From assembly GCA_016208765.1 (NCBI GenBank), contig JACQXK010000001.1, forward strand, positions 192,365-256,364: 64,000 nucleotides of DNA. Direction: 5' to 3'. The DNA comes from Candidatus Omnitrophota bacterium (GTDB lineage Bacteria > Omnitrophota > Gorgyraeia > Gygaellales > Profunditerraquicolaceae). A program made the position numbers and the translations under genes. Of the stretch, positions 203 to 54,957 are shown piece after piece (positions within the stretch are counted from its first letter, which is position 1; every line of letters begins with the position of its first letter). Under the pieces are notes generated by a model. It saw nothing but the letters and a program-made list of their open reading frames with translations, was not told where the DNA came from and ran no database searches.

Positions 203-2473
203 GTGCCTAAGGATTTGATTTGCGGTATGGAAGTAGAAGAAGCTAAGGCTATAAAACTTGAGAAAAACGGCGAAACTTATTTCTTTTGTAGCAGAAGCTG
301 CCACGATAAATTTTTGAATAAAACAGAAGATAAGAAACTTAATAAAAAACATGAGTCTAGCAGTTTTTATATTTGTCCAATGCATCCAGAGATTGAGCAA
401 GATATGCCTGGTGATTGTCCGAAGTGCGGAATGTCTCTTGAGCCAAAGAGTGTTTCAGCCGGAGAACAAGATAGTGAGGAACTAAATATCCTGTCTCGTA
501 AATTCTGGATCGGGTTGATTTTGACAATTCCTATTTTTTTTCTGGCACTTGGCGAGATGATCCCGTTTTTTAGCCTGAGAGCTTTTTTGCCTTCCGGGTT
601 TTTGCGTTGGATGCAGTTTGTTTTAGCAACGCCGGTTGTTTTGTGGGCTGGAAATATTTTCTTTGTAAAAGCATGGAAATCAATCTTAAATAAAAGCCTT
701 AATATGTTTACCTTGATTGCTATGGGCGTGGGGACAGCTTATGGTTTTAGCGCGATAGCAATTCTTTTCCCGAATATTTTACCCGAATCATTAAAAATGC
801 ATGGTGAGATTAGCTTGTATTTTGAAGCTGCCGCAGTGATTACAGTTTTGGTGCTTTTGGGCCAGTTTCTTGAGGTAAGGGCTCGTAACAAAACAGGGCA
901 GGCGATTAAAGCATTGCTTGGGCTTGCAGCTAAACAAGCGCATCGTATTCGCGAAGGCAAAGAAGAAGAAGTCTTTATTGAGGATATTCAAAAAGGCGAT
1001 TTATTGCGTGTTCGTCCGGGTGAGAAAGTGCCTTTGGACGGTATTGTTATTGAAGGTAAAAGCACAATTGATGAATCAATGATTTCAGGCGAGCCGGTTC
1101 CTGTTGCCAAAAAAGAAGGCGACCGGGTTATCGGTGCGACTGTTAATCAAACAGGCACTTTTGTGATGAGGACGGAAAAGATTGGCTCTGAAACTTTGCT
1201 TTCTCAAATCGTTAAAATGGTAGCAGATGCCCAGCGCAGCCGCGCTCCTATTCAGAAACTTGCAGACCAGGTTTCAGGTTATTTTGTTCCCGGCGTGCTG
1301 GTGTGCGCGGTGCTTGCTTTTGTTGCCTGGAGTATATTTGGCCCGGCTCCGGTTTTAGCGTATGCTTTAGTTAGCGCCATCTCGGTTCTGATCATTGCCT
1401 GCCCTTGTGCTTTAGGGCTTGCAACACCAATGGCAATTATGGTGGGCGTTGGAAGAGGCGCGCAGTCAGGTATATTAATCAAAAACGCCGAGGCAATTGA
1501 AAAAGCCGAGATGATAACATATGTTCTTACAGATAAAACAGGGACATTAACAGCCGGTAAGCCGCAGGTAACTTCTGTTATTCCGACGGGTGTTTGGGAT
1601 GAGCATTCATTATTAAGTATAGCAGCTTCTATTGAACACAGCAGTGAACATCCGCTGGCGCGTTCAGTGGTTGATTATGCAAAAGAAAAAGGATATGAAC
1701 TAACGCCGGTTGATGGTTTTCAATCTGTAACAGGGGGCGGAGTTAAAGGCAAAATTAATGGTAGGGCAATTTTACTTGGAAAACAAAAATTCATTGAAGA
1801 TGATGGGATAAGCTTACCAGAAGAATTAAAAAAGAAGTCTGATGAGCTTCAGGAAAAGGCAGCAACAGTTATTTGGGTAGCTGTTGATAGGCAAATAGCA
1901 GGAGTCATTGGAATTTCAGATCCTATAAAGAAAACAACTCCTGATGCTATTCGCGCTTTGCATAAAATGGGCCTGAAGGTTGTCATGCTGACAGGTGATA
2001 ATGAAAAAACTGCAAGAGCAATTGCAAAAGAATTGGGAATTGTTGATCTTTATGCGGGGCTTGAGCCAAAAGATAAACAGGAGATTGTAAAAAAGTTAAA
2101 GAGCCAGGGCATAAGGGTGATGGTAGCTGGCGACGGTATTAATGATGCGCCGGCATTAGCTGAAGCAGAAGTTGGTGTTGCTATGGGCACAGGAACAGAC
2201 GTGGCAATTGAAAGCGCGGGAATTACTTTGGTTAAGGGAGACCTGAATGGAATTGTTAAGGCCTTGCATCTTAGCCGGGGTGTGATGAGTAATATTCGTC
2301 AAAATTTGTTTTTTGCTTTTATTTACAATGCTTTGGGTGTTCCCATTGCAGCCGGTGTGCTTTATCCGTTTTTTGGATTGCTTTTAAGCCCTATGATTGC
2401 AGGCGCTGCCATGAGTTTTAGCTCGGTTTCAGTAATCGGGAATTCTCTGAGGCTAAGAAATTTAAAGTTGTAG
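203..2473 (+). CDS. copA: Copper/heavy-metal translocating P-type ATPase (P1B type) with N-terminal CGM-type metal-binding repeats.
   Basis: 756 aa. It has N-terminal 'CGMEV' (TRASH/YHS-like) and 'CPKCGM' motifs, a membrane CPC motif ([12 protein letters not shown]), a DKTGTLT phosphorylation site and [10 protein letters not shown]. Confidence 0.9.
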
Positions 2474-2516
2474 AGAAGTAATGTTAATAAAATAACTTTT
2501 ATTTAGGCGGGCGTTT

Positions 2517-2720
2517 ATGGAATTTAAACTTAAAGCTGAATTTATTGAGCTTGATAATATGTTGAAAGTTTTAGAGCTTGTTGCAAGCGGCGCTGACGCG
2601 AAGCAGCAGATACAGGAGGGTTTAGTTAAGGTTAATGGGGTTGTTGAGTTACGTATCCGCCGAAAGCTTAAGCAGGGAGATTTAATTGAGTTTGGTGGAA
2701 ATATGATTACTATTACATAG
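2517..2720 (+). CDS. Small S4-domain RNA-binding protein (YbcJ/ribosome-associated family).
   Basis: 67 aa; the overall pattern is typical of S4-like small proteins. Confidence 0.6.
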   Translation: MEFKLKAEFIELDNMLKVLELVASGADAKQQIQEGLVKVNGVVELRIRRKLKQGDLIEFGGNMITIT

Positions 2721-2791
2721 AAAAAGGCAATAGATGGGTATGGGGAATTCTAAAAATATAAGCCATATTCTCAAGTTAAAGAGGTGTAAAT

Positions 2792-3505
2792 ATGCATGTA
2801 TTGATGTTTATGATTACCATAGTCATTCTGTTTATCGTAGCGAGAATTGGTGCTATTGCTTTTGAACTTACCGGACTTAAATTGCACATTTCCCGTTTTC
2901 AAGCACTATCTTGTTTTACGAATACTGGATTTAGTACTAAGGAATCCGAGCTTATTGTAAGTAGCCATCAAAGAAGGAAAATTGCATCGGTACTTATGAT
3001 TATAGGCTATGCAGGATTTGTTAGCCTGATCGCATCATTTGTAAATGCAATGAAACTTCCTGAGCATATAGAAAATACTTCTGTAACTTTTCTAAATTTC
3101 GTCTTTCCTGCTAATTTATTGCCTTCTATAAATCTGGCTTTAATTTTATTTTTTACTTATATTTCCTATAAAGTATTTTTTAGTTCAAAATTGGCGGATA
3201 GGTTAACTGAACTGTTGAAAAACCGCTTAATTAAACGGGGGATATTTGCTCCAATTCATCTTGAAGAATTTATGATTACCTCAAAAGGCCACTGTATTGC
3301 TAATGTTGAAGTTTGTGAAAATAGTTTTGTGTTAAATAAGGAAATAGGTGACCCATATTTTAGAGACTGTGGTATTTCAATATTAGCTATTGAGAGGGAG
3401 GGAGAGATATTGGCTAATTCTCCGGTAAACACCAAGTTGTGTTTGGGCGATAAAATTATTTGCTCAGGTAAAATAGAGAATATTAAAAAAAGTATTTTAA
3501 TTTAA
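2792..3505 (+). CDS. Membrane protein with a C-terminal TrkA-C/RCK_C-like domain.
   Basis: 237 aa with hydrophobic N-terminal segments and a C-terminal region resembling RCK_C (…ILAIEREGEILANSPVNTKLCLGDKIICSG). Confidence 0.5.
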   Translation: MHVLMFMITIVILFIVARIGAIAFELTGLKLHISRFQALSCFTNTGFSTKESELIVSSHQRRKIASVLMIIGYAGFVSLIASFVNAMKLPEHIENTSVTFLNFVFPANLLPSINLALILFFTYISYKVFFSSKLADRLTELLKNRLIKRGIFAPIHLEEFMITSKGHCIANVEVCENSFVLNKEIGDPYFRDCGISILAIEREGEILANSPVNTKLCLGDKIICSGKIENIKKSILI

Positions 3506-3594
3506 CTTGGATTAATGAGGAATAGGGACAGAGAGTTTAATTAGAAATAATATTGTGTCTTCGGAATTTGCCGTAATTTAAAAATTGCGTTATT

Positions 3595-3603
3595 GGGGGG
3601 GGG
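3595..3603 (+). repeat. G9 homopolymer immediately upstream (spacer/RBS position) of the secreted repeat-protein start codon.
   Basis: Nine consecutive G, read directly from the sequence, followed by ATATG. Confidence 0.9.
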
Positions 3604-3605
3604 AT

Positions 3606-4700
3606 ATGAAAAAGATATTTGTTGCATTACTTGTTATCGTAATTATTAATTTCCTTTGTTTTACTCAACTACCATCAGTAAGAGCTGAAGAAGCCAGAAC
3701 ATTTATAGGAACGATTGAATCTTTTAGGCCGGTTATGGGCAGGCCGCCAAAGTGGTATTTTGCCAGGTTTACGGCTGTTAATGATATTGGCGAAAAGAAA
3801 GAATTCTGGATATTGGGAGCTTCCGGTGCCTCTCCGACTTCTGTTACTGATTTTGATGGTAAGCCGATGGATAAACCAGGTTATAATCATAGGCCTCAAG
3901 TGGGTAAAAAAGTAGAAGTAAAGTATTCAACCGCTGGAAACGGACGCAATGAGGCTATTTCGATCCGCTATGTTCCTGCGGATTATGTGCCGCAGGTAAC
4001 AGCACCGGCTGCGCAACCAGGTTTAAATTCAACGTCCTCGGCAATCGCCGTTTCCGAAGCCGGAAATAATATCTTTGTAGGAAAAGTTGTAAAGGGCGGA
4101 GTCACTTTCAGCTTGAAATGTCCTTATAGGTTCGTAATTGTTATTGATAATGGCGAGAAGAAAGATGTTTGGATACCAAGGGATAATATGCGCATTACCG
4201 AGCTTAACGGTAATTCAGTATATGGCGCACCTCCGAGAGCAGGTAGAAAAATGGAGATCAAATATTTGACCGGGGACAACGGCCAATACGAAGCAGTCTC
4301 TATGCATTATGTTCCTGAGGATTATGTGCAGAAATCCACAACGCCAGTCTTACTAACACAAACCCCAGCCACGACTACGGAGCAGGAAGTAAAATTTCAG
4401 GGTAATGTTTTTGTGGGTAAACTGGAGAAGGCTACGCCGGTTTTTCACCATATTGACAAGTCACAGCCACGATGCAAGCTTTTGGTTGTAGCGGATAATG
4501 GGGAACAAAAACTTTTCTTTGTATCCGGACTTTGTCCGGTTATTGACGCAAGCGGAAAAGACATAAGCCAAACTTGGGGGAATATTGCATCTTTGCTTAA
4601 GAATGGTGAGCGCCTTGAGGTAAAATATTCGGTTATTAGAAATGGAAACTACATAACAAATGGACAGAACGGAGCGGATTCGATTCGTTGCCTGGATTAA
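3606..4700 (+). CDS. Secreted hypothetical protein containing three roughly 110-aa internal repeats.
   Basis: ATG at 3606 gives MKKIFVALLVIVIINFLCFTQLPSVRAEE, a signal peptide. The ORF track starts at TTG 3585, but the ATG sits just after a G9 tract. The three repeat units each end in '(E/V)(V/I)KY.T..NG.YEA.S..YVP.DYV'. Confidence 0.7.
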   Translation: MKKIFVALLVIVIINFLCFTQLPSVRAEEARTFIGTIESFRPVMGRPPKWYFARFTAVNDIGEKKEFWILGASGASPTSVTDFDGKPMDKPGYNHRPQVGKKVEVKYSTAGNGRNEAISIRYVPADYVPQVTAPAAQPGLNSTSSAIAVSEAGNNIFVGKVVKGGVTFSLKCPYRFVIVIDNGEKKDVWIPRDNMRITELNGNSVYGAPPRAGRKMEIKYLTGDNGQYEAVSMHYVPEDYVQKSTTPVLLTQTPATTTEQEVKFQGNVFVGKLEKATPVFHHIDKSQPRCKLLVVADNGEQKLFFVSGLCPVIDASGKDISQTWGNIASLLKNGERLEVKYSVIRNGNYITNGQNGADSIRCLD

Positions 4701-4804
4701 TATGAGCAAGCAAGAAGATAAGAAAAAAGTATTTCTTCCGCTTTGGGCTAACGGATGGTCTAAATACCGCGTGATGATTTTGGGGATTTTAATGAGGATG
4801 AATA

Positions 4805-5521
4805 ATGAGGGCTAAAATGGTTATGGAAAAAATTATTTTTGCCTGGAGCGGCGGTAAAGATAGCGCCATGGCGCTTTATGAATTGAAAAAGAACAGGGAT
4901 TATGAAATATCAGCATTGCTTACTACGATAACAGAAGATTACAGCAGGATAAGCATGCACGGCGTCCGGGAAATTCTTCTTGAGCAACAGGCAGATTCTT
5001 TAGGTCTGCCTTTGGAGAAAATCTATATTACAAAAAAATCATCTAATGAAGAGTATGAAACTAAGATGAGGGATACGTTGATCCGTTATCAAAGTAACGG
5101 TGTTTTCTCTGTAGCTTTCGGTGATATTTTTCTTGAAGACTTAAAGAAATATCGCGAGGGCAATTTGTTAAAAATAGGCATGAAAGGCATTTTTCCTGTC
5201 TGGAAAAGAAATTCTTTTGAGCTCGCTAATACATTTATTGATTTAGGTTTTAAAGCGGTTATTACTTGTATTGATTCAAAAGTTCTTGATAAGGCTTTTG
5301 CCGGCAGGAATTTTGATAAGCAATTTTTATCAGAACTTCCTCCCAATGTTGACCCCTGCGGAGAGAATGGGGAATTTCATTCATTTGTGTACGAGGGCCC
5401 AATATTTTCAAAGCGAATATTATATGAAAAGGGTGAGGTTGTTTTAAGAGATAACCGGTATTATTTCTGTGATTTGATGCCAGTTGAGAATAAATTGGCT
5501 GTTGGTGCAAACTTGCCCTGA
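4805..5521 (+). CDS. PP-loop ATP pyrophosphatase of the Dph6 / MJ0570-like (diphthine-ammonia-ligase-like) family.
   Basis: N-terminus …KIIFAWSGGKDSAMALYEL contains the SGGKDS PP-loop. Its size (about 235 aa) fits the MJ0570 family. The true start may be Met-5 or Met-7. Confidence 0.65.
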   Translation: MRAKMVMEKIIFAWSGGKDSAMALYELKKNRDYEISALLTTITEDYSRISMHGVREILLEQQADSLGLPLEKIYITKKSSNEEYETKMRDTLIRYQSNGVFSVAFGDIFLEDLKKYREGNLLKIGMKGIFPVWKRNSFELANTFIDLGFKAVITCIDSKVLDKAFAGRNFDKQFLSELPPNVDPCGENGEFHSFVYEGPIFSKRILYEKGEVVLRDNRYYFCDLMPVENKLAVGANLP

Positions 5522-5673
5522 GCCTGCCTAAGATGCGGGGGGACATAATACTTAATTAGAAATAAGTACTGTCTCCGGAATTCCTTGCGTCTATTGACCG
5601 TTGGTGCAAGTACAACGTGATGATTTTGGGGATATTGGAGCGGACAAATACTTTGGAATGAAGGGGTTAAGCT

Positions 5674-6672
5674 ATGAAAAATAAGATTACTGAAATACCG
5701 GTAAGGGGTGAAATTGCCATTTATCAGACTAAAGACAAGAAAGTCCAGCTGGAAGTTAAGCTGGAGCAGGAAATGGTTTGGCTTTCACAAGAGCAGATAG
5801 CGAATCTTTTCAAAACTGAACGAAGCGTTATTACTAAGCATCTCGGCAATATCTTCTGTTCCAATGAATTAGGAGAGAAAAGCAATGTGCATTTTTTGCA
5901 CATTCCCTTTTCGGATAAACCGGTAAAATTTTACAATCTTGATGTGATAATTTCAGTTGGGTACAGGGTTAATTCGTCTCGTGCTACACAGTTTCGTATC
6001 TGGGCTACAAATGTCCTGAAGCGGCATTTGATTGATGGTTATACCATTAATGAGAAACGCTTGAAACAGCAGACCCAAAAACTTGAAGCTTTACAGAAAG
6101 CAGTAAAGCTAATAAGCAGTATGAAGGATCGCAAGCAGCTTGAATATAAGGAAGCCATGGGGCTGCTTGAAGTAATCAGCGATTATAGCTACGCACTTGG
6201 GCTTTTAGATGATTATGATTATAAGCGGCTAAAGATAACCAAAACTTCAAAAGAAGAAAAGTTTATTTTAAGCTACGAATTGGCAATAGAAGCTGTAAAT
6301 AAGCTCAAAGACAGAATTGGTAGTTCAGATCTTTTTGGCACAGAGCGTGATAAATCATTTAAGAGTTCGGTATCTTCAATCTATCAAACGTTTGACAGGA
6401 AAGATTTATATCCAAGCATTGAAGAGAAGGCAGCTAATTTGCTTTATTTCATTGTTAAAAATCATTCTTTTGTTGATGGGAACAAACGAATCGCTGCTTC
6501 AATATTTTTGTGGTTCTTAGAGAATAATGGTATTCTGTATAAAGAAGACGGCTCAAAGCGCATCGCCGATAATGCATTAGTCGCTTTGACTCTGATGATT
6601 GCAGAAAGTAAGCCCAGTGAGCGAGATATTATCGTTACGCTGGTTGTGAATTTGATAAACAGGAATAATTAA
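5674..6672 (+). CDS. RhuM-family protein with a C-terminal Doc-type Fic domain.
   Basis: The N-terminal region matches the RhuM virulence-protein family (…VISVGYRVNSSRATQFRIWATNVLKRHLIDGY…). The C-terminus has HSFVDGNKRIAA, i.e. the Doc-type HxFx(D/N)(A/G)NKR motif rather than the AMPylating GNGR motif. Confidence 0.75.
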   Translation: MKNKITEIPVRGEIAIYQTKDKKVQLEVKLEQEMVWLSQEQIANLFKTERSVITKHLGNIFCSNELGEKSNVHFLHIPFSDKPVKFYNLDVIISVGYRVNSSRATQFRIWATNVLKRHLIDGYTINEKRLKQQTQKLEALQKAVKLISSMKDRKQLEYKEAMGLLEVISDYSYALGLLDDYDYKRLKITKTSKEEKFILSYELAIEAVNKLKDRIGSSDLFGTERDKSFKSSVSSIYQTFDRKDLYPSIEEKAANLLYFIVKNHSFVDGNKRIAASIFLWFLENNGILYKEDGSKRIADNALVALTLMIAESKPSERDIIVTLVVNLINRNN

Positions 6673-6821
6673 AAACAAGTTTTATTAAGGTTATGAGGGA
6701 TAGAATTTTTAATTAGACATAAGTATTGTTTCCCCGGAATTATCAATGCGTTACCATACAAAAATAATTATATTTGTTCCGTAACTTTAATAATTACAGG
6801 TAGTTTAGGAAAGCGTCATAT

Positions 6822-7964
6822 ATGCTGAAAACAGGTTTTTTATTGGGTGCTGGATTTTCTAAATATGGAGGAATGCCACTATCTTGTGATTTTGTTATAC
6901 AAGCCCAAAACATACTGGATAATAGGCTTGAAAGATCATATATACCTTCGCGTGAGCCTAAAAACTTGCAGAGTCTTGTTAGATTTAAAGATTTCGTTTC
7001 AGATGAGAAAGGAAGAGAGATTAACCATATTGAAGAAATCATTAAGTTGTCTGATCAATACCGGCTTACTAAAGATTGGGACAATATTGATAAAGAAGTT
7101 AGAGATGCAATTTATGAGATATTGATTGCAGCGCCTTTTATCATGTATTTAAAAGATAAAAATGAGTTATATAAAATGTTTGATATTTATTTAAGATTTT
7201 TGTTAATTGTTGCAGATTCCGAAGCTATGATTGCAACATTGAATTATGATCCTCTCCTGGAGCTTTTGTTACACACAGCAGCAATGTCAATAACACCGAA
7301 TAGCCAGCTATTTCATAAATTCGCTGAAATTGTTAGTTTTAATTATGGAATTGGAGATTTTTCATACCGACCTTTATGGGGTTCTTCTTCTAATATAGAT
7401 AGAGTAGATATATTATATTTTAAATTGCATGGAGCTACTAATTGGGAAGGTTGTGATCAACACGGATTAACAGAGGTTTGCGATCCACTAAAAACTAGGG
7501 CAATTGGGCGCTGTAGAGAGTGCAACATGCCAGCAAAACCATTTATTATTTATCCAGTTGAGGAAAAGAAATTAAATAGTCAGTTATCAGCATTGTGGGA
7601 TACCGCTTTTGGAGCATTAATGCAAGTGGAACAGATTGTTATAATTGGATGCCGATTCAATGAAACAGACAAAGATATATTTAAAAATGTTAACGAATTA
7701 ATTAGTAACAATAAAAGACTTGTAATTGTTGATCCGCAAGGCAGGCAAATTAAAGAAAGAATTGCCAAGCTAAATGAAAATGTTGTATACATCGATAATG
7801 GGAATGGCGAAGGAGCGGTATTTGAAGATATTTTCTGTGATGGTAAAACAGTAGCAAACGAAAATTTTCAAGAAATCACTAACTTAAGATTACGTAAAGA
7901 TGTGCAATATTTTCGAAACGAACAACCTTCTATGCCTTTTTTTGAAGAACCAGTCGCAACATGA
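6822..7964 (+). CDS. Standalone SIR2-like (SIR2_2/PF13289-type) domain protein; candidate NADase defence effector.
   Basis: N-terminal 'FLLGAGFS' glycine-rich motif typical of the SIR2_2 family, with a downstream 'YFKLHGATNW' histidine motif. 380 aa with no other recognisable domain. Confidence 0.65.
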   Translation: MLKTGFLLGAGFSKYGGMPLSCDFVIQAQNILDNRLERSYIPSREPKNLQSLVRFKDFVSDEKGREINHIEEIIKLSDQYRLTKDWDNIDKEVRDAIYEILIAAPFIMYLKDKNELYKMFDIYLRFLLIVADSEAMIATLNYDPLLELLLHTAAMSITPNSQLFHKFAEIVSFNYGIGDFSYRPLWGSSSNIDRVDILYFKLHGATNWEGCDQHGLTEVCDPLKTRAIGRCRECNMPAKPFIIYPVEEKKLNSQLSALWDTAFGALMQVEQIVIIGCRFNETDKDIFKNVNELISNNKRLVIVDPQGRQIKERIAKLNENVVYIDNGNGEGAVFEDIFCDGKTVANENFQEITNLRLRKDVQYFRNEQPSMPFFEEPVAT

Positions 7965-8203
7965 GCAGTTATCTTAATTGTATTGGTTAGATTGACCAGA
8001 CGGATATGTAGAGTTAGAGGTTTGTTAGTTATTAGATAATAATAAGTTATGAAAAATAAATATAGTATATACATGCGTACCTTTGGATGGCCGTTGGTTA
8101 CAGTGGCTAGGGATGGCACTGGATGTGTTAAAGAGGGTAAATGGCTTGGAGTGAAAGGGTTGCGGGAAAACAAGTCTGAAAACGAAAATCTTATTAATGT
8201 TGT

Positions 8204-8209
8204 ATAATG
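8204..8209 (+). promoter_or_regulatory. Extended -10 element (TGtTATAAT) upstream of the giant NTPase gene, followed by a (GTAAT)x3 micro-repeat.
   Basis: TG at 8201-8202 and TATAAT at 8204-8209; gtaatgtaatgtaatg lies immediately downstream. Assigned by pattern only. Confidence 0.35.
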
Positions 8210-8248
8210 TAATGTAATGTTGACCAGGGAAAATTAAACAAACAATAA

Positions 8249-11200
8249 TTGATAGCTATGCAAGAAGTAAATTGGAACAACTTTAAAGCAAAGTTTAACG
8301 GTAAAGAGCAAAAATCTTTCGAGTGGTTTTGCTATCTCTTGTTTTGTAAAGAATTCAAGAAGAACACCGGAATATCCAGGTATAAAAACCAAGCAGGGAT
8401 AGAAGCCGAGCCTATTGAACATAATGGTCAAATGATAGGGTTTCAGGTGAAATTCTATGAAACAAGGATTAGTGAGAATAAAGACGACATAAAAAAGTCT
8501 ATTGAAACGGCAAAGAGAAAGAATGGCAACCTTAACAAAATCATATTTTATATAAATCAGGAATTCTCAGAAAGTAGCAAAAAAGATAAGAAAGACCCCG
8601 CATACAAAATCGACATAGAAAATTATGCTAAGTTTCTTGGCGTGGAAATAGATTGGAGAAGCAGAAGCTTTTTTGACTCTTCATTTGTCTGTCAGGACAA
8701 TGCCGTAATAGCACAACACTTTTTTGACTTAGGCAAGAGCGCGATTGATTTCTTAAATGAGTTAACTCAGCATACCGAAGCTATCCTAGCGGCAATAAAT
8801 TCAAAAATAAACCTCAGAAATAATGAAATAAAAATAGATACGGCACAGAATATAAAAGTGCTACAAGATGTTCTGAATACTTCTCCCATGGCTATTTTAA
8901 GTGGAGAGGCAGGGGTAGGAAAAACCGCTCTCATCAAAGATTTTTATGACTCAAGCAAAGACAAGGCTCCTTTTTACATCTTTAAAGCTGCCGAATTCTG
9001 CATACCCAACATAAATCAACTTTTCGCCAATTACGGATCATTTACCCTGTCAGATTTCATGAGAGAACACCAAGATTTCCAAGAAAAATACATAGTAATC
9101 GATTCTGCTGAAAAGTTATCTGACATTGAATATAAGGAAGTTTTTCAGGAATTTTTATCCACCCTGCAAATTAACAAATGGAAAGTCATATTTACAACAA
9201 GACATAGCTACTTGGACGATTTAAGATTTCAGTTTATTGAGGTTTACCATGTCCGGTGTCAGCCAGTAAATATCGAAAATCTTACCTCGGCACAACTTGT
9301 CGAGATTTCAAAAAAATATGGTTTTGATCTGCCAAGGAATGACAGGTTGCTTGAGCTTTTGCGAACACCTTTCTATTTAAATGAATATCTACAAAATTAT
9401 GATAGTTTAGGAAACGCAATAAGTTTTTCTGATTTTAAAAATTTGTTGTGGAACAAGCAGATATCCAAAACTTCATATCAGAAGGATAACATACATATAA
9501 AACGGGAAAAATGCTTCCTGGAGATTGCTCATAAGAGGGCTGCTGAGGGCAGCTTTTTTGTAAAGGCTGATGGGTGTGATGATGAAGTTTTACGGGCTCT
9601 TGAGAACGATGAAATTATAAAATATAACTCCAATGCGGGCGGTTACTTTATTACACATGACATTTATGAAGAGTGGGCATTGGATAACATAATTGAAAGA
9701 ACGTTTTTGAATTCAAAAGATTACAGGGATTTCTTAAGGGGGATAGGAAGTTCTTTGCCAGTTCGTCGAGCTTTTCGGAATTGGCTCTCAGAAAAACTAT
9801 ATAATAATGGAAATGAAGTAAAAGCATTTATTGAATTTGCAATCAATGATGATACGATTGAGAGCTATTGGAAGGACGAAATCTACGTATCAATCTTGCT
9901 ATCCGATTACGCAGAGGTCTTTTTTGACATATTCAAAGACAAGCTTTTAGAAAATAACCAAACTCTCCTGGTGAAAATTATTTTTTTGCTGAGAATCGGT
10001 TGTAAAGAGATTGATGAAGACTTGCTTAATATATTTGGTATTCAAAAAACGGCGTGGAGCGCATTGAAAACTATCTTCACGAAACCAAAAGGCCGTGGAT
10101 GGAAATGCACCATCAATTTTATACATGAGCATAAAGGCGCATTGGGATTACAAAGAATGAATATAATCCTCCCCATGCTTGATGATTGGAATAACAAAAA
10201 TAAAGGGGGCGAAACTACAAAGCAAGCGAGCCAGATAGCGTTATATTATTATAACGAACTCACAAAACAACAATATTATCATATCTCTGACCGCAAAGAG
10301 GGGCAATTAATCAGAGTCATTTTGCAAGGCTCATCAGAAATTAAGGATGAGTTGAAAACTATCTTAGATGAAGTTATCTCTAACAAAGCGGTTGATTACA
10401 GGGATAGGTACTACGTTCTTATTAAGCCAATACTAACATCACTTACGGATTCCTTCGAGGTGGTTAAAGCTCTGCCGAATTATGTAATAAGATTAGCAGA
10501 TATTTTTTGGTTCCAAAATCCCAATGAATTAGATGAGGATTATAGATATTCAAGAAGAATGGACATGGAGGATTACTTTTGTATTTCATCAAGGCATAAC
10601 GACTTTTTACCAGCAAGTGCATTCCAAACACCTATATTCCAGCTTTTAAAGATATCTCCCCAAGAGACAACGGACTTTATTTTATCGTTTACCAACAAGA
10701 CGGTTGAATGCTATGCGAAATCTAAGCTTGATGGTGAAATAGAACAGGTAGACGTTTTTGTCGATAATAATAAAGCGATAAAGCAATATATAAGCAACAG
10801 GCTTTGGTGCATGTACCGTGGAACCCAAGTTTCTCCATACCTTCTTGAGTCTATACATATGGCTCTCGAAAAATGGCTTCTGGACGTCGCCAAATCAGCA
10901 TCAAAAGAGGTTATAGAAAGCCGGTGCCTGTATCTTATAAAAAACTCTAAATCTGCTTCAATAACCGCAGTTGTTTCAAGCGTGGTTTTAGCTCAACCGT
11001 CAAAGCTTTTCAATGTTGCAAAAATACTTTTCCAAACAAAACAATTCTTCCTTTACGACACGGCAAGGATGATGCTTGACCAATCACACAAAGGTCAATT
11101 ATTAGGGTTGAGAAATCTCTTTCCTCGTAACTACGATAATGAAATCTATGAAGATGAAAGAATAAAAGCTTGTGATGATAGCCACAGAAAATACGCATTA

Positions 11201-13009
11201 GAGCATTTAGCTCTTAATTATCAGTTATTCAGGACAGAAGAAGAAAGAGAGGATGAGGTTAAAGATAGACAAGAAATCATATGGGCCATATTCGATAAAT
11301 ATTATGCAGAGCTCCCAGACAAATCAACAGAAACGGAATCCGACAAGACATGGAAGCTATATTTGGCAAGAATGGATAGAAGAAAGATGAGTCCAGAAAT
11401 TGAGAAGACAGATGAAGGCACTTTCATTAAATTCAATCCCGAAATCGACGCCGATTTAAAAAAACATAGTGAAGATGCTCTGCAAGAAATTTCCGAGAAG
11501 ATGAAGTATACAGGTTTACGGCTATGGGCAGATAGCAGATTCAGAGGAGAAGAAGAGACCTACAAAAAATATCCTCAGTATGAAACCGAACCAAAACGTG
11601 TAATTACAGAAGCAAAGGAAATATTTGAAGGGCTAAAGACCACAAAAAGGGAAGAATTTTCCCTGTTTAACCGTTCAATACCCGCATATGCTTGCTCTGT
11701 TTTAATGCGTGATTTTTTTGGCAAACTTGATTCAGATGAAAAAGAATTCTGCAAAGAAGTAATTATTGGGTATGCAGCTATACCGTTAATGACAGAACAG
11801 TATATGTACCAGATATCCGATGGCACGGAAGCCGCAATTGCTCTTTTACCCAATCTTCTGGAGCATTTTCAAAAAGATAAGAAAGATATCAAAATGTTGT
11901 TGTTTAGATTGCTGCTCATCCCGTCCCGAGAAATATCAACATTTGTTGCAAGAGGCATTTTGCATAAGTTATGGAAAATCAGTTTTAATGATGCAAACTC
12001 TATGTTTCTAGGATATCTTTTGCTTTCACCCAAATATTATGCGCTTATCGATGAAATACGAGAAGAAAATTACAAAAGAAAAAATCACGGCGATTTAAGA
12101 ACACAGGTTTCTAAAGCATTTGAAGAAAAGTATAGAAAGGAACTTGAGAGGGTTAACAAGAACGGCATTTCTTATGATGAATTAGATGGCTTAGAAAAGA
12201 TAGATTTAGAAATTCTAAAATCGGCGTTTGAGTTATTGCCTTTGGAAACAACTGACAACGATCATAAGAAATTCTTGAGCGCAATCTTTCCCATTTTCGC
12301 AACGAAAATCTTACAGGATGATCGTGAGGACAGAATTGACTATACCCTAAGGCATAGATTCTTAGAAAAATTTGCATATTTTACCTTAAACCTCCCGAAA
12401 AAAGAAATAATGATATATTTGCGACCTTTTATCGATAATTTTCACAACTCAAGAGAAATGTCTGAATTCTTCCAAGAATTTATATTTGTAGAAGATAGGC
12501 TGTCCAAATATGACGAATTCTGGACAATATGGAATGCTTTTTATGAGAAGGTGGCAGATTTATGTAAGAGCAAGAGCAGTTATTATGCAAAAGAAGTCAT
12601 AAGTAGCTATCTCTTAGCAGGGATACCCTGGAATGAAAAAGCAAAAGAATGGCATACGCTAAAAGAACGAGAAAAGATATTCTATAAAAAGGTAGCTGAG
12701 GAAATGGGGCAGCACCCAGCGGTGTTGTATTCCATTTCCAAGGTTCTAAACGGCATCGGAAGCAATTTTATAGAAGACGGATTAACCTGGATAAGCTATA
12801 TCTTAGAAAACAACAAACAGCTAAGCTCGGAAGAATTAGAAACAAATACCATTTTTTACATAGAGACCTTTCTTCGACGATATATTCTAAATAATCGTCT
12901 ACATATTAGGAGGTCACTATTGATTAAGAAGCAACTTATCGTTGTTTTAAATTTCTTGATAGGAAGAGGTTCGATCGTAGGGTATTTATTACGAGATGAT
13001 ATTTTATAA
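8249..13009 (+). CDS. Giant STAND-like P-loop NTPase (1586 aa) with an N-terminal Mrr-like PD-(D/E)xK nuclease-fold domain and a long helical C-terminus; resembles the Avs (antiviral STAND) architecture.
   Basis: N-terminus FEWFCYLLFCKEF…GIEAEP…QMIGFQVKFYE follows the Mrr_cat pattern (FE.L…GID…I.QCK.Y). Walker A is [12 protein letters not shown] near aa 220 and Walker B is KYIVIDSAEKL near aa 280. More than 1200 aa of non-repetitive, helix-rich sequence follows. Confidence 0.6.
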   Translation: MIAMQEVNWNNFKAKFNGKEQKSFEWFCYLLFCKEFKKNTGISRYKNQAGIEAEPIEHNGQMIGFQVKFYETRISENKDDIKKSIETAKRKNGNLNKIIFYINQEFSESSKKDKKDPAYKIDIENYAKFLGVEIDWRSRSFFDSSFVCQDNAVIAQHFFDLGKSAIDFLNELTQHTEAILAAINSKINLRNNEIKIDTAQNIKVLQDVLNTSPMAILSGEAGVGKTALIKDFYDSSKDKAPFYIFKAAEFCIPNINQLFANYGSFTLSDFMREHQDFQEKYIVIDSAEKLSDIEYKEVFQEFLSTLQINKWKVIFTTRHSYLDDLRFQFIEVYHVRCQPVNIENLTSAQLVEISKKYGFDLPRNDRLLELLRTPFYLNEYLQNYDSLGNAISFSDFKNLLWNKQISKTSYQKDNIHIKREKCFLEIAHKRAAEGSFFVKADGCDDEVLRALENDEIIKYNSNAGGYFITHDIYEEWALDNIIERTFLNSKDYRDFLRGIGSSLPVRRAFRNWLSEKLYNNGNEVKAFIEFAINDDTIESYWKDEIYVSILLSDYAEVFFDIFKDKLLENNQTLLVKIIFLLRIGCKEIDEDLLNIFGIQKTAWSALKTIFTKPKGRGWKCTINFIHEHKGALGLQRMNIILPMLDDWNNKNKGGETTKQASQIALYYYNELTKQQYYHISDRKEGQLIRVILQGSSEIKDELKTILDEVISNKAVDYRDRYYVLIKPILTSLTDSFEVVKALPNYVIRLADIFWFQNPNELDEDYRYSRRMDMEDYFCISSRHNDFLPASAFQTPIFQLLKISPQETTDFILSFTNKTVECYAKSKLDGEIEQVDVFVDNNKAIKQYISNRLWCMYRGTQVSPYLLESIHMALEKWLLDVAKSASKEVIESRCLYLIKNSKSASITAVVSSVVLAQPSKLFNVAKILFQTKQFFLYDTARMMLDQSHKGQLLGLRNLFPRNYDNEIYEDERIKACDDSHRKYALEHLALNYQLFRTEEEREDEVKDRQEIIWAIFDKYYAELPDKSTETESDKTWKLYLARMDRRKMSPEIEKTDEGTFIKFNPEIDADLKKHSEDALQEISEKMKYTGLRLWADSRFRGEEETYKKYPQYETEPKRVITEAKEIFEGLKTTKREEFSLFNRSIPAYACSVLMRDFFGKLDSDEKEFCKEVIIGYAAIPLMTEQYMYQISDGTEAAIALLPNLLEHFQKDKKDIKMLLFRLLLIPSREISTFVARGILHKLWKISFNDANSMFLGYLLLSPKYYALIDEIREENYKRKNHGDLRTQVSKAFEEKYRKELERVNKNGISYDELDGLEKIDLEILKSAFELLPLETTDNDHKKFLSAIFPIFATKILQDDREDRIDYTLRHRFLEKFAYFTLNLPKKEIMIYLRPFIDNFHNSREMSEFFQEFIFVEDRLSKYDEFWTIWNAFYEKVADLCKSKSSYYAKEVISSYLLAGIPWNEKAKEWHTLKEREKIFYKKVAEEMGQHPAVLYSISKVLNGIGSNFIEDGLTWISYILENNKQLSSEELETNTIFYIETFLRRYILNNRLHIRRSLLIKKQLIVVLNFLIGRGSIVGYLLRDDIL

Positions 13010-29310: not shown

Positions 29311-30588
29311 TTGCCTATTTTCCTGAAAAATACCTTCCGGTTAATTTTTCTTCTCGTTATATTCTTAGCCTTGCCAGTTTTTTTTCTTCAAAAGAAACTC
29401 CTTTCTTCAGGCCCATTCTTCTTGTTTTACCTGATTAATCTTACGTTTATTATCATTTCGGCAAACAGGGTTTCTAAAAGAAAATTTGCAGTTCAATACG
29501 AAAGCCAGAAGATTGAAGAAGGCCTGAATGTTTTGTCCGCGGATAATCTTAAAGAAGATAAACACAATATCAACCTGCAGCAAAAAACAATCCGCTATAA
29601 CAGTCTCAAAGAAATAATTGAAGAATTAAATCAAAGGCTTGATGTTGATTTTGTCGCCGGTAAGCTCTCGGGAATTGTATTTTCTTTGCTTGCCGCAAAT
29701 AAAGGGGCCTGTCTGTTGTATTTAGTGGATAACCAGACGCAAAGGCTCTCTTTGTTTAAAACAAAAAAAGAAAATTCCGGCATGGTGGTTAAGGCAAAAG
29801 AAGGCGATATGTTTGATTTGTGGGTACTCAGGCATACGAGCCCATTATTGGTTGAGGATGCAAAAAAAGATTTTCGTTTTGATTTAGATAAGTTTAAAAA
29901 GGATGATTCAAGGCAGGTTGAATCTTTAATCAGCTCTCCTTTGGTAAGCGGGCAGAAACTGATTGGGATCTTGCGCCTTGATTCTCCTGTTAAAAATGCA
30001 TTTAGCCAGGATGATCTGCGTTTCTTGGCTACGGTTTGTGAAATAGGAGCAGTGGCCCTGGAAAACAGCCAGTTGTTCCAGAAAACGAGGGATTTGGCGA
30101 TCCACGACGGGTTGACCTCGCTTTATACCAAGGGATATTTTCTGGAGCGGTTAAAAGAGGAATGCCGCAGGGCGTTGCGTCACGGCTCAGAGTTGAGCCT
30201 GTTAATGCTTGATATTGATTTCTTTAAAAATTATAACGATAAGTTTGGGCATAGCGCAGGAGATATTGTTTTAAAGAATTTAACGCGCTTATTGAATGAA
30301 TCCTCTAAGGGTGAAGATGCGGTTTTAGGCCGTTTTGGAGGAGAGGAATTTTGTGTGATCTTAAAAGGAAAAGACAAAAAAGATGCGCTTATTTTTGCGG
30401 ATGGATTGCGCCAGAAGATTGAAGGCGAGTCCGTAACCTTGCGCAGGGAAAGAACAAGCATTACTGTATCAATAGGCGTTGCAAGTTTTCCTCCGGATAC
30501 AACCGATGAAAATGACCTGGTGCGTAAGGCAGATGCGGCAATGTATGAGGCAAAGAAAAAAGGAAGAAATCAGGTATGCTGTATTTAA
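29311..30588 (+). CDS. Membrane-anchored GAF-GGDEF diguanylate cyclase.
   Basis: N-terminal TM helices, a GAF-like middle region and a GGDEF domain with RFGGEEF. Confidence 0.8.
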   Translation: MPIFLKNTFRLIFLLVIFLALPVFFLQKKLLSSGPFFLFYLINLTFIIISANRVSKRKFAVQYESQKIEEGLNVLSADNLKEDKHNINLQQKTIRYNSLKEIIEELNQRLDVDFVAGKLSGIVFSLLAANKGACLLYLVDNQTQRLSLFKTKKENSGMVVKAKEGDMFDLWVLRHTSPLLVEDAKKDFRFDLDKFKKDDSRQVESLISSPLVSGQKLIGILRLDSPVKNAFSQDDLRFLATVCEIGAVALENSQLFQKTRDLAIHDGLTSLYTKGYFLERLKEECRRALRHGSELSLLMLDIDFFKNYNDKFGHSAGDIVLKNLTRLLNESSKGEDAVLGRFGGEEFCVILKGKDKKDALIFADGLRQKIEGESVTLRRERTSITVSIGVASFPPDTTDENDLVRKADAAMYEAKKKGRNQVCCI

Positions 30589-31559
30589 CCGCACTGTTTT
30601 TACTGACTTTAATTCTGCAGGTTTATGTTTTAAGATTGCTGCGCATTAATTTTAATAAGGCAGATACAAAATTGAAACAATTAACAAGAAAGCACGCCAA
30701 TTTATTTAAGAAAAATGCTGCGCTTAAATCCGAGAACGCAGTTTTAGGAAAAAGTACTGAAGAAATTATCCAGATATATGAAGTTACCAAAAATATCTGC
30801 AAGAGCCTTGATGAAGAACAGGTCTTTAATAGTTTCCGTGAAGATGTAAGCCGGTTCATTAAATTGGATGATTGCAAATTCCTGAGTGCTGGAGAAGATA
30901 CTTCTCGGTATGATAAAGAAAATGTTTTGCCGATAAATATTGACGATAGTTTGGTTGGGTATCTTGCTGCTATTAATTTGCGCGCTGACGAACGCGAAGA
31001 ATTTTTTATTCTTGGAGGACAGTTCAAGCTTGGAATTGAAAGGGCGATTCTTTACAAAAAAGTCCAGGAGCTTGCGATTACCGACGGACTTACACAACTT
31101 TTGAGCCGCAGGTATTTCTTGGAAAAGTTTGCTGAAGAAATAGAGCGTTCACAGAAATTTGGGCTAAGTTTTGCTTTTTTGATGATTGATTTGGATAATT
31201 TTAAAAGCTTTAATGACCGTTACGGGCATTTAGTGGGAGATGCATTGTTAAGAGAAGTGGCGAATGGTATTAAAGAAAATATAAGGCAGATAGATTTTAT
31301 CTGTCGTTATGGCGGTGAAGAAATTGCGCTGGTGTTGGCTGAAACGAACCAGGAACATGCCCGGCTGGCAGCTGAGCGTATACGCAGGTCAATTGAATCA
31401 AAAAATATTAACATTTATGATGAAGTGCTTAAGATTACAATCAGTATAGGTATGTCTAATTTCCCGGATGGAAAGGCAGACGCAAAGTCGCTTATTGAAA
31501 AAGCAGATAAGGCTTTGTATAAGGCAAAGCAATCCGGCCGCAACAAAGTTTGTTTCTAA
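30576..31559 (+). CDS. GGDEF-domain protein (variant GGEEI active-site motif) with an N-terminal TM/coiled-coil and a GAF-like region.
   Basis: RYGGEEIAL in the GGDEF domain. It overlaps the upstream GGDEF gene by 13 nt. Confidence 0.75.
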   Translation: MLYLTALFLLTLILQVYVLRLLRINFNKADTKLKQLTRKHANLFKKNAALKSENAVLGKSTEEIIQIYEVTKNICKSLDEEQVFNSFREDVSRFIKLDDCKFLSAGEDTSRYDKENVLPINIDDSLVGYLAAINLRADEREEFFILGGQFKLGIERAILYKKVQELAITDGLTQLLSRRYFLEKFAEEIERSQKFGLSFAFLMIDLDNFKSFNDRYGHLVGDALLREVANGIKENIRQIDFICRYGGEEIALVLAETNQEHARLAAERIRRSIESKNINIYDEVLKITISIGMSNFPDGKADAKSLIEKADKALYKAKQSGRNKVCF

Positions 31560-31746: not shown

Positions 31747-34700
31747 ATGACTAAAAGACTCTCTAAACTAATTGCCTTACTTTTAAGCTTTCTACTGCTA
31801 ATAGAGCAAGCAGGCTTTGCAGCTGGTGGTGCCATAGACCTATCAAGCCAATTCTCTAAGCTTGCCTCAGGCATATCTACTACTCTATCATCTGCTACTA
31901 CAGCTACCTTTCGTCCCATACACCTAAGATACCTGGAGTATCTACCTAAAGATAACAGCTTTAAGCTGCTCTTAGATAAAGGTAGCGTAGATACGTCATT
32001 GCGAGGCGCTTCACAGAGTAGGATAACGAAGCAATCTCAAAACCAGATTGCTTCGTCGCTCGTTTCGCTCGCTCCTCGCAATGACGATTTACACACCTTA
32101 CACCCCATATCGCAAGCTGAACTACAAGACCTCCAATCCACCACCCAAGACCTAATGAACTACTTCTACATAGGCCTCACACTACCTAATGATTCCTTCT
32201 GGGTTAACCTAAGACCTGCCCCGTTGATGACCGAAGGTCAATCTACGGGGACTGACTCACCCAACAACATCATAGACTCCTACCTATCTAAAACAGATAT
32301 AGGCAGAATTCTTCTTGAAGCTGATGTACAGCTAAAGAAAGACACCTCAAGCTACACTAACCCAGCTACTCCTATAGGAAAGCAATACTGGAATAAGCTC
32401 TACAAGAAAGCCTCTGATCTCTTTGGAACAGACCAGATTACTATCCCTACCCTAACAAGACCATGGATAGTTCCAGGAGAGATAATCATAAGAGAAAGTC
32501 TGTCACCTGTTGCCAGTGTTGGACAGGAGACAGGTGACAGGAGACAGGCGACACATCCCTCTGCCTACATCTACAAAGCTACCCTTAAAGTAATGCTTGA
32601 AGAAGACTACTTGAAGGGACTGTCCCCGAAGGGGACTGTCCCTGGTTCAACAGACTACTCCTTCACTGATCCGCGCCTTAAAGAACTCAACTCCTACTCT
32701 ACAGAACTAATCAAAGAACTAATCATCCCCAAACTGACTAAAGAGGTAAACTCCTCTAAAAGATACTCTAAGCTAAGACAGGTATACTACTCTCTAATAC
32801 TTGCTCAATGGTTTAAGTCAAGGCAGAAGGGACTGTCCCCGAAGGGAACTGTCCCTGATTTGATTGACTCTAAAAATCTCTCTAACCTAACCTCTAAAAC
32901 TACTTGGGATAAAGCTACCTACTTCAACCAATACCAACAATCCTTCACTAAAGGAGAATACAATACCAAGGAAACAGTCTATACACCTTCTGGACAGGTG
33001 ATCAGGAGTTATATGAGTGGAGGGATTACCTTGATGCAAGGGAGTTTTCCTATTCAGCAAGGGGCTACTTTTGAAAGCCAAGCCGGAAGCCCGATTAAAG
33101 TAGTCCCTGCCAACAGCCCTATTCCAGAAACTCTAAAAAATATCGCAGTAGAAATTAGTTGTTCGGTTTTAAATTCAGACAATTCTACAGTACAGTTAAT
33201 TCCAGAAGTATCATCTGAGAAAATGTATACGCCAGCCAGTTCTTCAGTAGTAAATCACGAAACTAGCGTAGGGCAACTTGTGCTTTTAGAAAAAAGAGAA
33301 TTCCGCTGGCTTCCGGAAGATATTACTAAAGTTGAACAACTGATTCCTGAATTGAAGAAATTTAGCCGAGGCGCAGAGGGTGTTGTGAAGCAGGAGGTAG
33401 CAATCTCACTTTTAGCGGGGCTGATTAGAAAGGAAAACTCAAAATCAATCGCAGCTTTTGAGGATTTAGCTGGACAGATAAAAGAATTTATTGCTCCGAA
33501 ACAAAGGCTTAGCTTAAAGTATGTATCGCTGAAGATTATAAATGCCGCAGCGCAAAATGGAAATCCGGTGGCATTAAAGCTAATCAAGGAATCAACAAGT
33601 GATTTAATAAAAACAATTATTGCGATTGAGCAAAAAGGAGATGTTTATGAAGGGCTTCAAGATATGGTGTTGGATGAGATGCTGGCGTTGTTGATTAGAG
33701 GCGAAAATAACGCATTATTAGAAATAGCAACAGCTTTATCCCAAGGATTAAGGGAAAATCTTCCATCAAGCCAGGATATAAATGAGATCAAGGGAATTCG
33801 TCAGCTCTTTAAACAAGCTCTCAATATGTCAGGTCTTAAGGTAATATTTAAGCTCCGTGAGATCGCAGCAATCCGCGCAACCAATAGTCTCATTCAGGCA
33901 TTGGAGCTTGATACGGAAGACATAATTTACGGTTACTGCGAAGAGCTAAATAAGAAGATGGTGCAGGAAGCAATTGAAAAAGGAGAGCTTCCTCCCGGCT
34001 ATTCTACTAAAAAATATACAGATTCGGCGGATCAGCATCAAAAGGATATCGTAGTAATATTTAATGATAATCAGTCTTTAGGCAGATCAGCCGACAAATT
34101 ACAATTACCTTATTACATTTTTAAATACGGGCTGCCAGAACCATTACCGCAGGAAATTGTAGCTAGAATGCGGCAAGAGATGAATATAGGAAAGCGCAAA
34201 GTGATTGTCGCCGGGTCAGTTGATCGGCAAGAAATAGGCGTTTTAATGGCTGCTTATAATAGTTTATACCGCAATCTCCCTGTAGAACAGCGTCCGTTAT
34301 TAGTTTTGGCTCCTCGGGATATAATCGATTTAGATGATGTGGATTTAAGTCAGCCAGATGCGCCTCTTGTGCTTAAGCAGGGAGAATTGTTAAAATCTTA
34401 TGCCTTAGCCGATGTTTGTATTGTAGGTAGCGATCGTAATATTTTAGAGCCATCAAGCCAGAGAAAATTGGTGTTGTATTTCTCGGGTTATTGGCGCAGC
34501 AATCAGCAAGCGAAAGATATGCTAGTTTCTTCGGGCGGAGCAATAGAGTTTAATCAAGATAATCTCTCTCTAGCGGTAAATAATCCGCAGATAACGCAAG
34601 AATTGGGAGAGAAAGGTTTTAAGATAGTGCAAGAATTCAAAAATAAGATTATTCCACAAACAACGGATATCGCGGCAATCTTCGGATTGTCTTTGTTGAT

Positions 34701-51765: not shown

Positions 51766-52248
51766 CTACCATTTTAAAAGCGGTATTTTATATCCTTCCT
51801 TGTTTGGGTCGTCTACTTTATATTTTGGTTTCATTAACGGTTTATCATAAGGAGGCAATCCGCTTGTTGCCACATCAACGCTGCCTGCTATTCCACGTGC
51901 GATTCCTGTGACTATCCCTTCTCCAAAGCCCACAATTGAGCCGACAACAACATTGCTTTTCTTTGAATTTTCTTGAATTTTATCCGGGACATCAACCCAG
52001 GATGTTAACACGTTAATTAGGCCTTCGCCCATTTTATAACCGGCAGTATTTTTATCAAGTTTATTTGTGTTGACGTTTTCCAGAAAAGCGCTTGGGATGG
52101 GCCTTAGGCTCACTCCGGCTACAGAAGGTGCAACTATTTCAGGTTGGGCGTAAATATTTGCGCAGGCAAAGAAGATCAAAGCTAAACTTGCCATTAAGAG
52201 CACTAATTTCTTCATCTTCCACCTCCTTGGCAGCCCCTCTATCCACAC
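51766..52248 (-). CDS. Small secreted protein, paralog of 51347..51760.
   Basis: Signal peptide MKKLVLLMASLALIFFACANIYA. C-terminal motif …GLPPYDKPLMKPKYKVD. Confidence 0.6.
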   Translation of the reverse strand: MWIEGLPRRWKMKKLVLLMASLALIFFACANIYAQPEIVAPSVAGVSLRPIPSAFLENVNTNKLDKNTAGYKMGEGLINVLTSWVDVPDKIQENSKKSNVVVGSIVGFGEGIVTGIARGIAGSVDVATSGLPPYDKPLMKPKYKVDDPNKEGYKIPLLKW

Positions 52249-52427
52249 ACTGGTCGGTGTAGGGACAGGTAACTTTGCGCCCCAGCATTGCTGCTGGTTT
52301 GCCTTTTTTCAATAGGTCCAAAGTAAATATAACATATTTGATTTGCTTATTCAAGGCAGAGGCTGGAAAAGTATTGTAATTAATGTAGGGGTATATATAA
52401 TAAGAATAGCCAGAAAAGGGGGGTTAT

Positions 52428-53084: not shown

Positions 53085-53158
53085 GGGCCCATAGCTCAGT
53101 TGGTCAGAGCAGGTGACTCATAATCACTTGGTCCGGGGTTCAAGTCCCTGTGGGCCCA
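53085..53158 (+). tRNA. tRNA with anticodon CAT. It is an elongator Met or a lysidine-modified Ile2 tRNA; it is not an initiator type.
   Basis: Cloverleaf folded by hand: acceptor GGGCCCA/TGGGCCC, D-arm GCTC-AGTTGGTCA-GAGC, anticodon arm GGTGA-CTCATAA-TCACT, T-arm CGGGG-TTCAAGT-CCCTG, discriminator A. Confidence 0.85.
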
Positions 53159-53174
53159 GAGATGAAATTGACGA

Positions 53175-53248
53175 GGGCATTTAGCTCAGTTGGTTAGAGC
53201 GCTACATTCACATTGTAGAGGTCAGAGGTTCAAGTCCTCTAATGCCCA
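53175..53248 (+). tRNA. tRNA-Val (anticodon CAC).
   Basis: Acceptor GGGCATT/AATGCCC, anticodon arm CTACA-TTCACAT-TGTAG, T-arm AGAGG-TTCAAGT-CCTCT, discriminator A. Confidence 0.85.
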
Positions 53249-54846: not shown

Positions 54847-54957
54847 TATTAGTTTAGGGCTAATAGTATATTGTTTGTTGCAAAATCTTGCGATAGGCGA
54901 TATGCGATAAGCATAATGATTTAAAATAAAAAATCAATTCTAAAGGGAGGTAATACA

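Follow-up and report, generated by a model that had tools for sequence, protein, structure and literature searches.

The window analysed here is a stretch of 64,000 nucleotides from a Candidatus Omnitrophota bacterium (GenBank assembly GCA_016208765.1, contig JACQXK010000001.1, positions 192,365 to 256,364), and our subject is a run of nine consecutive G residues (G9) at 3595-3603 on the plus strand, just in front of a gene that encodes a secreted protein of 364 amino acids (3606-4700, plus strand). The run is followed by AT at 3604-3605 and by the ATG start codon at 3606 (surrounding sequence AAAAATTGCGTTATTGGGGGGGGGATATGAAAAAG); it spans positions -11 to -3 relative to this ATG and ends 2 nt 5' of it. 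A preliminary description had placed G9 at the ribosome-binding position of a secreted, internally triplicated protein and had proposed it as a candidate phase-variation switch. Direct reading of the sequence and alignment with the orthologous leaders confirmed both the location of the tract and its ribosome-binding position, and nine G's are within the length range known for slipped-strand mispairing. Our analysis suggests that G9 is probably the Shine-Dalgarno (SD) element of this mRNA, a lineage-specific poly-G version of the GGAGG-type box, i.e., an ordinary, unusually homopolymeric ribosome-binding site (RBS) rather than a dedicated phase-variation switch.

The protein encoded at 3606-4700 contains three OB-fold-like repeats and is identical to HY761_01095, a hypothetical protein at NCBI from a Candidatus Omnitrophica metagenome-assembled genome (MAG). 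A Sec-type signal peptide of 27 residues (3606-3686, plus strand), with cleavage after VRA, was predicted from sequence features, the structure model and the N-termini of homologues. The signal sequence MKKIFVALLVIVIINFLCFTQLPSVRA is followed by EE and can be read as an n-region with MKK/KK, a hydrophobic core and a cleavage junction between VRA and EE. In the structure model a helix (residues 2-18) precedes a low-confidence linker, and the signal-peptide N-terminus is kept in 16 homologues. DNA repeats inside the gene are spaced 363 and 348 nt apart, giving three internal repeats, and the AlphaFold model shows three beta-barrel domains (mean pLDDT 71, domain cores 80-90); the secreted and triplicated character of the product, as first described, is thus borne out. 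No Pfam, NCBIfam or PADLOC family matched the protein. Homologues with two to five repeats are found chiefly in Omnitrophota, single-repeat relatives occur in SHOCT proteins of Smithella, and the protein cluster at 90% identity has one member only. By analogy with other exported OB folds, the exported protein may be a periplasmic binding protein.

This genome has SD-type ribosome-binding sites, with GGAGG, AAGGAG, GAGG and GGGG boxes located 4-9 nt ahead of many start codons. For nine orthologous loci (contigs L005, L006/L020, L017, L018, L021, L022, L023 and L024) the upstream regions were retrieved, and all nine carry SD-like boxes of the ordinary type 7-9 nt before the ATG, including GGGAGG, CTGGAGGA, AGAGGA, AAAGGA, CGGGAGGA, AAGGGGA and AAAGAAAGAG, with GGAGGA likewise among those at the aligned position. 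In the multiple alignment G9 occupies the SD columns and part of the spacer of the orthologous leaders, where it aligns with TGGGAGG, CTGGAGGA, CAGAGGA and CGGGAGGA in L005, L006, L018, L021 and L023; the tract is positionally homologous to the SD boxes of its orthologues. Pairing was calculated against an assumed conserved core of the 16S rRNA 3' end; the hybrid of GGGGGG with CCUCC(U), made of G-C and G.U pairs, has a modelled energy of -7.7 kcal/mol. The best register gives an aligned spacing of 4, inside the range of about 4-10 nt before the start that is usual for SD elements, and in a simple anti-SD pairing model the gene ranks 6th of 46 genes in SD strength. Five to six of the G's would pair with the CCUCC(UU) core of the 16S rRNA 3' end, and the normal distance between SD and AUG would be supplied by the 5' registers of the run.

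Like a canonical SD site, G9 is G-rich, complementary to the CCUCC core and about 4-11 nt from the start codon, and it stands in the same columns as GGGAGG and GGAGGA of the orthologues. Unlike a canonical site, it is a pure homopolymer in which a G.U wobble replaces the A-U pair of GGAGG, it offers several pairing registers and it reaches within 2 nt of the ATG. Shorter poly-G SDs are found at other genes: a G6 (52418-52423) lies 4 nt 5' of the ATG at 52428 of a DUF3192 gene in the same window, and a G7 (831-837 of L018, a related Omnitrophota contig) lies 6 nt before the ATG at 844. Short poly-G SDs thus occur in this phylum, and G9 appears to be the long tail of an existing SD class. None of the nine orthologous loci has a homopolymer at or near the RBS, and the tract is thus not conserved in the gene family (0/9); nor did these loci show a repeat kept with varying length at the same place, as is expected of a contingency locus.

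G9 is the only G or C run of at least seven in the 64-kb window; behind it come four G6 (at 5537, 52418, 60761 and 60947) and a single C6. Runs of G9 or C9 were present in 22 of 100 dinucleotide-preserving shuffles (mean 0.40), so composition by itself leaves G9 non-significant, and the first-order expectation calculated from the run counts of the window is about 0.17 G runs of at least nine. Real G runs are 2-3 times rarer in the window than the first-order model predicts: 12 G5 were observed against about 33 expected, four G6 against about 8, and no G7 against about 2. This makes G9 a mild outlier, with p at roughly 0.05-0.2 for a window, and chance alone could still give a few runs of this kind per genome. 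The tract exceeds the mutability threshold of simple sequence repeat (SSR) contingency loci (about 7-8 or more G/C). Nine G's in a row are by nature prone to slippage at replication, and length variants must arise at some rate. Genomes with contingency loci carry several such tracts (a phasome), often in combination with weak mismatch repair; no second G/C run of at least seven was found in the window.

Several points weigh against an ordinary SD element. The tract is longer than an SD requires and stands out mildly from the depleted run-length distribution of the window, and the strength of its pairing is calculated on an assumed anti-SD sequence. The product is secreted and its gene adjoins a defence island, a setting where variable expression is common. 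Phase variation of runs as long as this one is documented in other bacteria, also for runs in 5' untranslated regions (UTRs) (PMC8295292; PMC11898584), and the comparison of tract length across samples described below covers only consensus sequences from two probably related samples, in which minority length variants are possible.

A probable origin of the tract can be seen in the intergenic sequence. Four unrelated genes in a row (starts at 3606, 4805, 5674 and 6822) each have a repeated element of about 100 nt in front of them, and the leader of the gene at 3606 is a decayed copy of it. In the element a hairpin-like motif A (GGGACA...TTAATTAGAAATAA...TGTCTCC) comes first, and motif B, or Box B, comes after it. 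One copy of motif A (GGGACAnAnAnnTTAATTAGAAATAA) is located at 3525-3550 on the plus strand and further copies at 5540-5565 and 6697-6722, which makes three copies in the window, where shuffles give an expectation of 0; of these copies, only the one at 5540 forms a convincing hairpin (z = -3.2). A degenerate motif B (consensus ACCGCGTGATGATTTTGGGGAT) was recognized at 3577-3605 on the plus strand by the repeat search and by alignment of the four intergenic regions with the leader from Omnitrophica UBA6210, and it bears the G run at its 3' end. Intact copies are found at 4766-4787 and 5612-5633, and motif B is also present in the leader of the orthologous gene of UBA6210 (L006, 2919-2933). The 3' end of Box B is TTTTGGGGAT, which includes GGGG, and the corresponding stretch in the leader of the gene at 3606 is GGGGGGGGGAT; motif B has GATTTTGGGGAT at the place where this copy has TGGGGGGGGGAT, which abuts the ATG directly. 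Judging from this comparison, G9 most likely grew from the GGGG that ends Box B, which would have come to adjoin the start codon and then lengthened.

The copies of the intergenic element are decayed to differing degrees, and candidate natures for it are a repeat of the MITE (miniature inverted-repeat transposable element) or REP (repetitive extragenic palindromic) type, a shared regulatory region, or a cassette boundary. Reading it as an integron attC site or cassette was rejected: Pfam searching detected no integrase in the window, and no consistent R''/R' core sites were seen by eye. In three copies (4702-4815 on the plus strand, 5567-5661, and about 2880-2970 of L006) motif B can also be read as codons for a peptide, (W)(S/C)KY(R/N)VMILGIL. 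The codon changes between the copies are synonymous, at Gly (GGG/GGT), Ile (ATT/ATA) and Leu (TTA/CTG/TTG), which suggests that motif B may be part of a translated mini-ORF (open reading frame). A mini-ORF of 37 amino acids, MSKQEDKKKVFLPLWANGWSKYRVMILGILMRMNNEG, starts 2 nt past the stop codon of the repeat-protein gene and runs into the beginning of the gene that follows; this mini-ORF, which contains Box B, has no homologue in the protein database. For the leader of the gene at 3606, the idea of a conserved RNA element was likewise rejected, as Rfam gave no match in 2400-5000 even at permissive E-values and the leader folds no better than shuffled sequence (z = -1.0). The orthologous repeat-protein genes of four other Omnitrophota contigs have a different, conserved leader motif, (G)AACCGAACGTAAGTG, 25-35 nt upstream (L005 1668-1681; L017 43-56; L018 2962-2975; L021 1102-1115 and 3962-3975). 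In L021 it is also found 5' of an unrelated ORF of 207 amino acids, within a larger repeated leader that has a GGCAACC/GGTTGCC hairpin, and the motif may be a shared regulatory site.

The effect of tract length on translation was estimated with a crude model in the style of the RBS calculator, which has three terms, namely pairing to ACCUCCUUA without gaps, the spacing penalty of Salis and the cost of unfolding -35 to +35, and uses E. coli parameters. The modelled total free energies (dGtot, kcal/mol) were -0.07 for G7, -2.66 for G8, -4.18 for G9, -5.68 for G10, -5.69 for G11 and -2.40 for G12. With beta = 0.45 the model gives a change in translation of about 2-fold per G near G9, roughly over G7 to G11, and changes of about 6- to 15-fold only after loss of 2-4 G; it predicts no OFF state within one G of G9. 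The response to a change of one G would accordingly be graded rather than on/off, because the tract is the SD itself and offers several registers, such that one G more or less should shift translation only about 2-fold. Many genes of the window have little or no SD, and thus a weak SD need not silence a gene.

These predictions bear on the rival that survives best, in which the tract works as a graded contingency 'dimmer' and slippage generates subpopulations of G7-G11 that express differing amounts of the secreted OB-fold protein, through SD strength and spacing, leader folding, or pairing with a C/U-rich small RNA as in RepG/tlpB of Helicobacter pylori. We regard this as unlikely. The tract length is within the known mutable range and the tract is in the 5' UTR at the RBS; the modelled steps are about 2-fold for each G and amount to about 6- to 15-fold when the length differs by 2-4 G. 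In the predicted fold of the leader, the G run is paired with the U/C-rich 3' arm of motif A (UGUGUCUUC), and unfolding becomes costlier as the tract lengthens, but that fold, as stated above, is no better than shuffled sequence. The protein is secreted and its gene adjoins the defence island. The tract is absent from all nine orthologues and has no companion among the G/C runs of the 64 kb. For a partner of the RepG type, the longest C run in the window is C6, which lies within a coding region; no Rfam small RNA was found in the window, there is no Rfam match near the tract, and no candidate C/U-rich small RNA was seen. Precedents exist for gradual control by a G-repeat in the 5' UTR (PMC8295292) and for the addition of one G raising translation (PMC11898584), but our literature searches gave no paper linking Omnitrophota with phase variation.

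The closest functional precedent for a leader G-repeat is the H. pylori tlpB-hp0102 leader, in which a repeat of 6-16 G tunes expression gradually via the C/U-rich loop of the small RNA RepG and the length of the repeat varies between and within strains (PMC8295292). It resembles the present tract in being a homopolymeric G run in a 5' UTR with a graded effect, which here is a modelled one; it differs in that neither length variation nor a small RNA partner was found here, and here the run is the RBS itself. In espR of Mycobacterium tuberculosis, insertion of one G in a 5' UTR homopolymer alters leader folding and raises translation efficiency, which shows that such tracts can act on translation (PMC11898584). 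Full-text searches of the literature gave no paper on a homopolymer that is itself the SD and acts as a switch.

Tract length was compared in consensus sequences only, after look-ups of the exact protein had placed the locus in no more than two Logan runs. G9 is present in all three assemblies, i.e., the MAG and two Logan assemblies from two sequencing runs. The assembly of SRR12113406 (5263 nt) and that of SRR12113402 (3575 nt) are both 100% identical to the window without gaps, and both have G9. Another contig of SRR12113402 differs from the window by 3 single-nucleotide polymorphisms in 5291 nt, and this run is therefore an independent read set. A gapped DNA pattern scan of genome contigs gave no strain variant with another tract length, and the same scan of metagenome contigs gave three unrelated chance matches only. 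The G8/G9/G10 length heterogeneity anticipated by the preliminary description was not seen in the MAG, SRR12113406 or SRR12113402. The equal consensus length in two runs counts against the 'dimmer'; it argues against large shifts of the modal length and is silent on minority variants.

A phase-variation switch is thus plausible on tract length alone, and nothing available shows that length variants are kept or used; the switch is unsupported because the tract is not conserved, there is no second tract, the length is the same in two samples and the predicted effect is graded. The fullest version of the 'dimmer', in which the SD itself is a hypermutable homopolymer that acts as a heritable and reversible control of translation over about G7-G11 in steps of about 2-fold, possibly reinforced by pairing with the motif A arm or a C/U-rich small RNA, seems to us quite improbable. 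If true, it would be the first reported SSR-based expression variation in Omnitrophota, and one in which the SSR is the RBS. Should the tract vary at all, simple-sequence contingency loci, a feature of host-adapted pathogens, would be known from an environmental phylum as well, one that is uncultured and free-living or epibiotic, and there would be an example of a repeat that is the ribosome-binding site, with expression tuned stepwise rather than switched. A note of caution also follows for genome annotation: a long poly-G run beside a start codon, in a genome that uses SD sites, is not by itself evidence of phase variation.

Homopolymers in promoters and 5' UTRs underlie phase variation of Neisseria opc/porA, Bordetella fim, Moraxella uspA1 and Treponema tpr, and in Neisseria, Bordetella and Treponema the length of a poly-G/C tract in a promoter determines the promoter's geometry or where transcription starts. 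These systems share with G9 an intergenic poly-G/C tract of at least eight upstream of a gene for an exported protein. Their tracts are polymorphic in length and are placed between the -35 and -10 hexamers, close to them, or a long way upstream in the UTR, whereas G9 sits right at the start codon and promoter hexamers on either side of it were not found. A transcriptional effect of this kind, with G9 in or just after a promoter (-35 TTGCCG at 3568, 17-nt spacer, -10 TATTGG at 3591) and its length setting promoter geometry or the transcription start, is very unlikely in our view. A permissive scan gave a weak sigma-70-like match, TTGCCG-N17-TATTGG or alternatively TTGCCG-N15-TGcGTTATT, a related leader in L021 has TTGCCT-N17-TATGGT, and an RpoD-type sigma factor is encoded in the window; but the candidate -10 is without the conserved final T, and a standard scan of 3506-3605 detected neither a sigma-70-type promoter nor a terminator. 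The tract is downstream of both hexamers, which leaves the -35/-10 spacing unchanged, and no sigma-70-like pair flanks it in the manner of a promoter-spacer switch. It also stops 2 nt short of the ATG, so that the mRNA would have to be leaderless, yet all orthologues have a leader that bears an SD.

An on/off switch by frameshift would require that G9 be translated, which could be so if translation began at a TTG codon at 3585-3587 (plus strand), earlier proposed as the start of an alternative frame. This TTG is 21 nt 5' of ATG 3606 in the same frame; it opens the longest ORF and would prepend MRYWGGD, with G9 read as Trp-Gly-Gly and the frame lost on a change of one G. The gonococcal pilC signal-peptide tract and the lgt genes are such switches, with in-frame poly-G and on/off frameshifts, and poly-G tracts in signal-peptide regions are known switches (PMC13017665). 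G9 resembles pilC in lying at the extreme 5' end of a signal-peptide gene, but unlike the tracts of pilC and lgt it is upstream of a conserved start codon. There is no purine-rich SD in the 15 nt upstream of TTG 3585, and 16 of 16 aligned full-length homologues begin with M[KR]K, which aligns with ATG 3606. TTG 3585, without SD and without homologue support, was rejected as a start, and G9 is for these reasons taken to be non-coding, so that a frameshift-type switch is not expected and appears unlikely. Even with TTG used, ATG 3606 with its own SD would stay available after a frameshift, leaving no OFF state; a coding tract is highly improbable. Last, a sequencing or assembly artefact, from poly-G of two-colour chemistry or a miscounted homopolymer, is hardly credible and was rejected, because, error-prone as homopolymers are and common as poly-G artefacts are at Illumina read ends, the same G9 was recovered in three concordant assemblies made with different software from two runs, it is interior to each contig with a perfect match of at least 600 nt on each side, and both flanks are homologous to the leader of a related genome.

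The window is core chromosome, with miaB, miaA, hflX, clpB, hrcA-grpE-dnaK-dnaJ, dnaG, rpoD, ruvC and RNase P RNA. The defence island is located directly downstream of the repeat-protein region (5674-13009) and includes a RhuM/Fic protein (PADLOC candidate PDC-S23, E = 3e-132), a SIR2/AbiH-like protein (6822-7964) and a full-length Avs4 STAND NTPase (8249-13009, 2087 bits). Upstream, 203-3505 encodes a heavy-metal P-type ATPase with YHS and HMBD domains, a small S4-domain protein and a TrkA_C membrane protein. The gene immediately 5' of the orthologue in L005 encodes a DtxR-type repressor with a FeoA domain (563-1204), and a PP-loop ATPase of the Diphthami_syn_2 family is near the repeat-protein gene both in the window and in UBA6210 (L006, 548-1279). 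This gene context hints that the OB-fold repeat protein might have a part in the handling of cations or metals in the periplasm.

Other features are distributed over the rest of the window. Two GGDEF diguanylate cyclases are encoded at 29311-31559, and a c-di-GMP-I riboswitch (52226-52313, minus strand, 58 bits) is upstream of the only sizeable ORF of the minus strand (51766-52248). Genes for tRNA-Met and tRNA-Val are at 53085-53248 and a bacterial RNase P RNA of class A (178 bits) is at 54485-54847, all on the plus strand. Two large ORFs, 31747-37791 (2014 amino acids) and 39455-41917 (820 amino acids), had no Pfam match at E <= 0.001. The window as a whole contains 14921 G against 10669 C, and essentially all genes of at least 150 amino acids are on the plus strand; this strand asymmetry and gene orientation are consistent with a long leading-strand segment.

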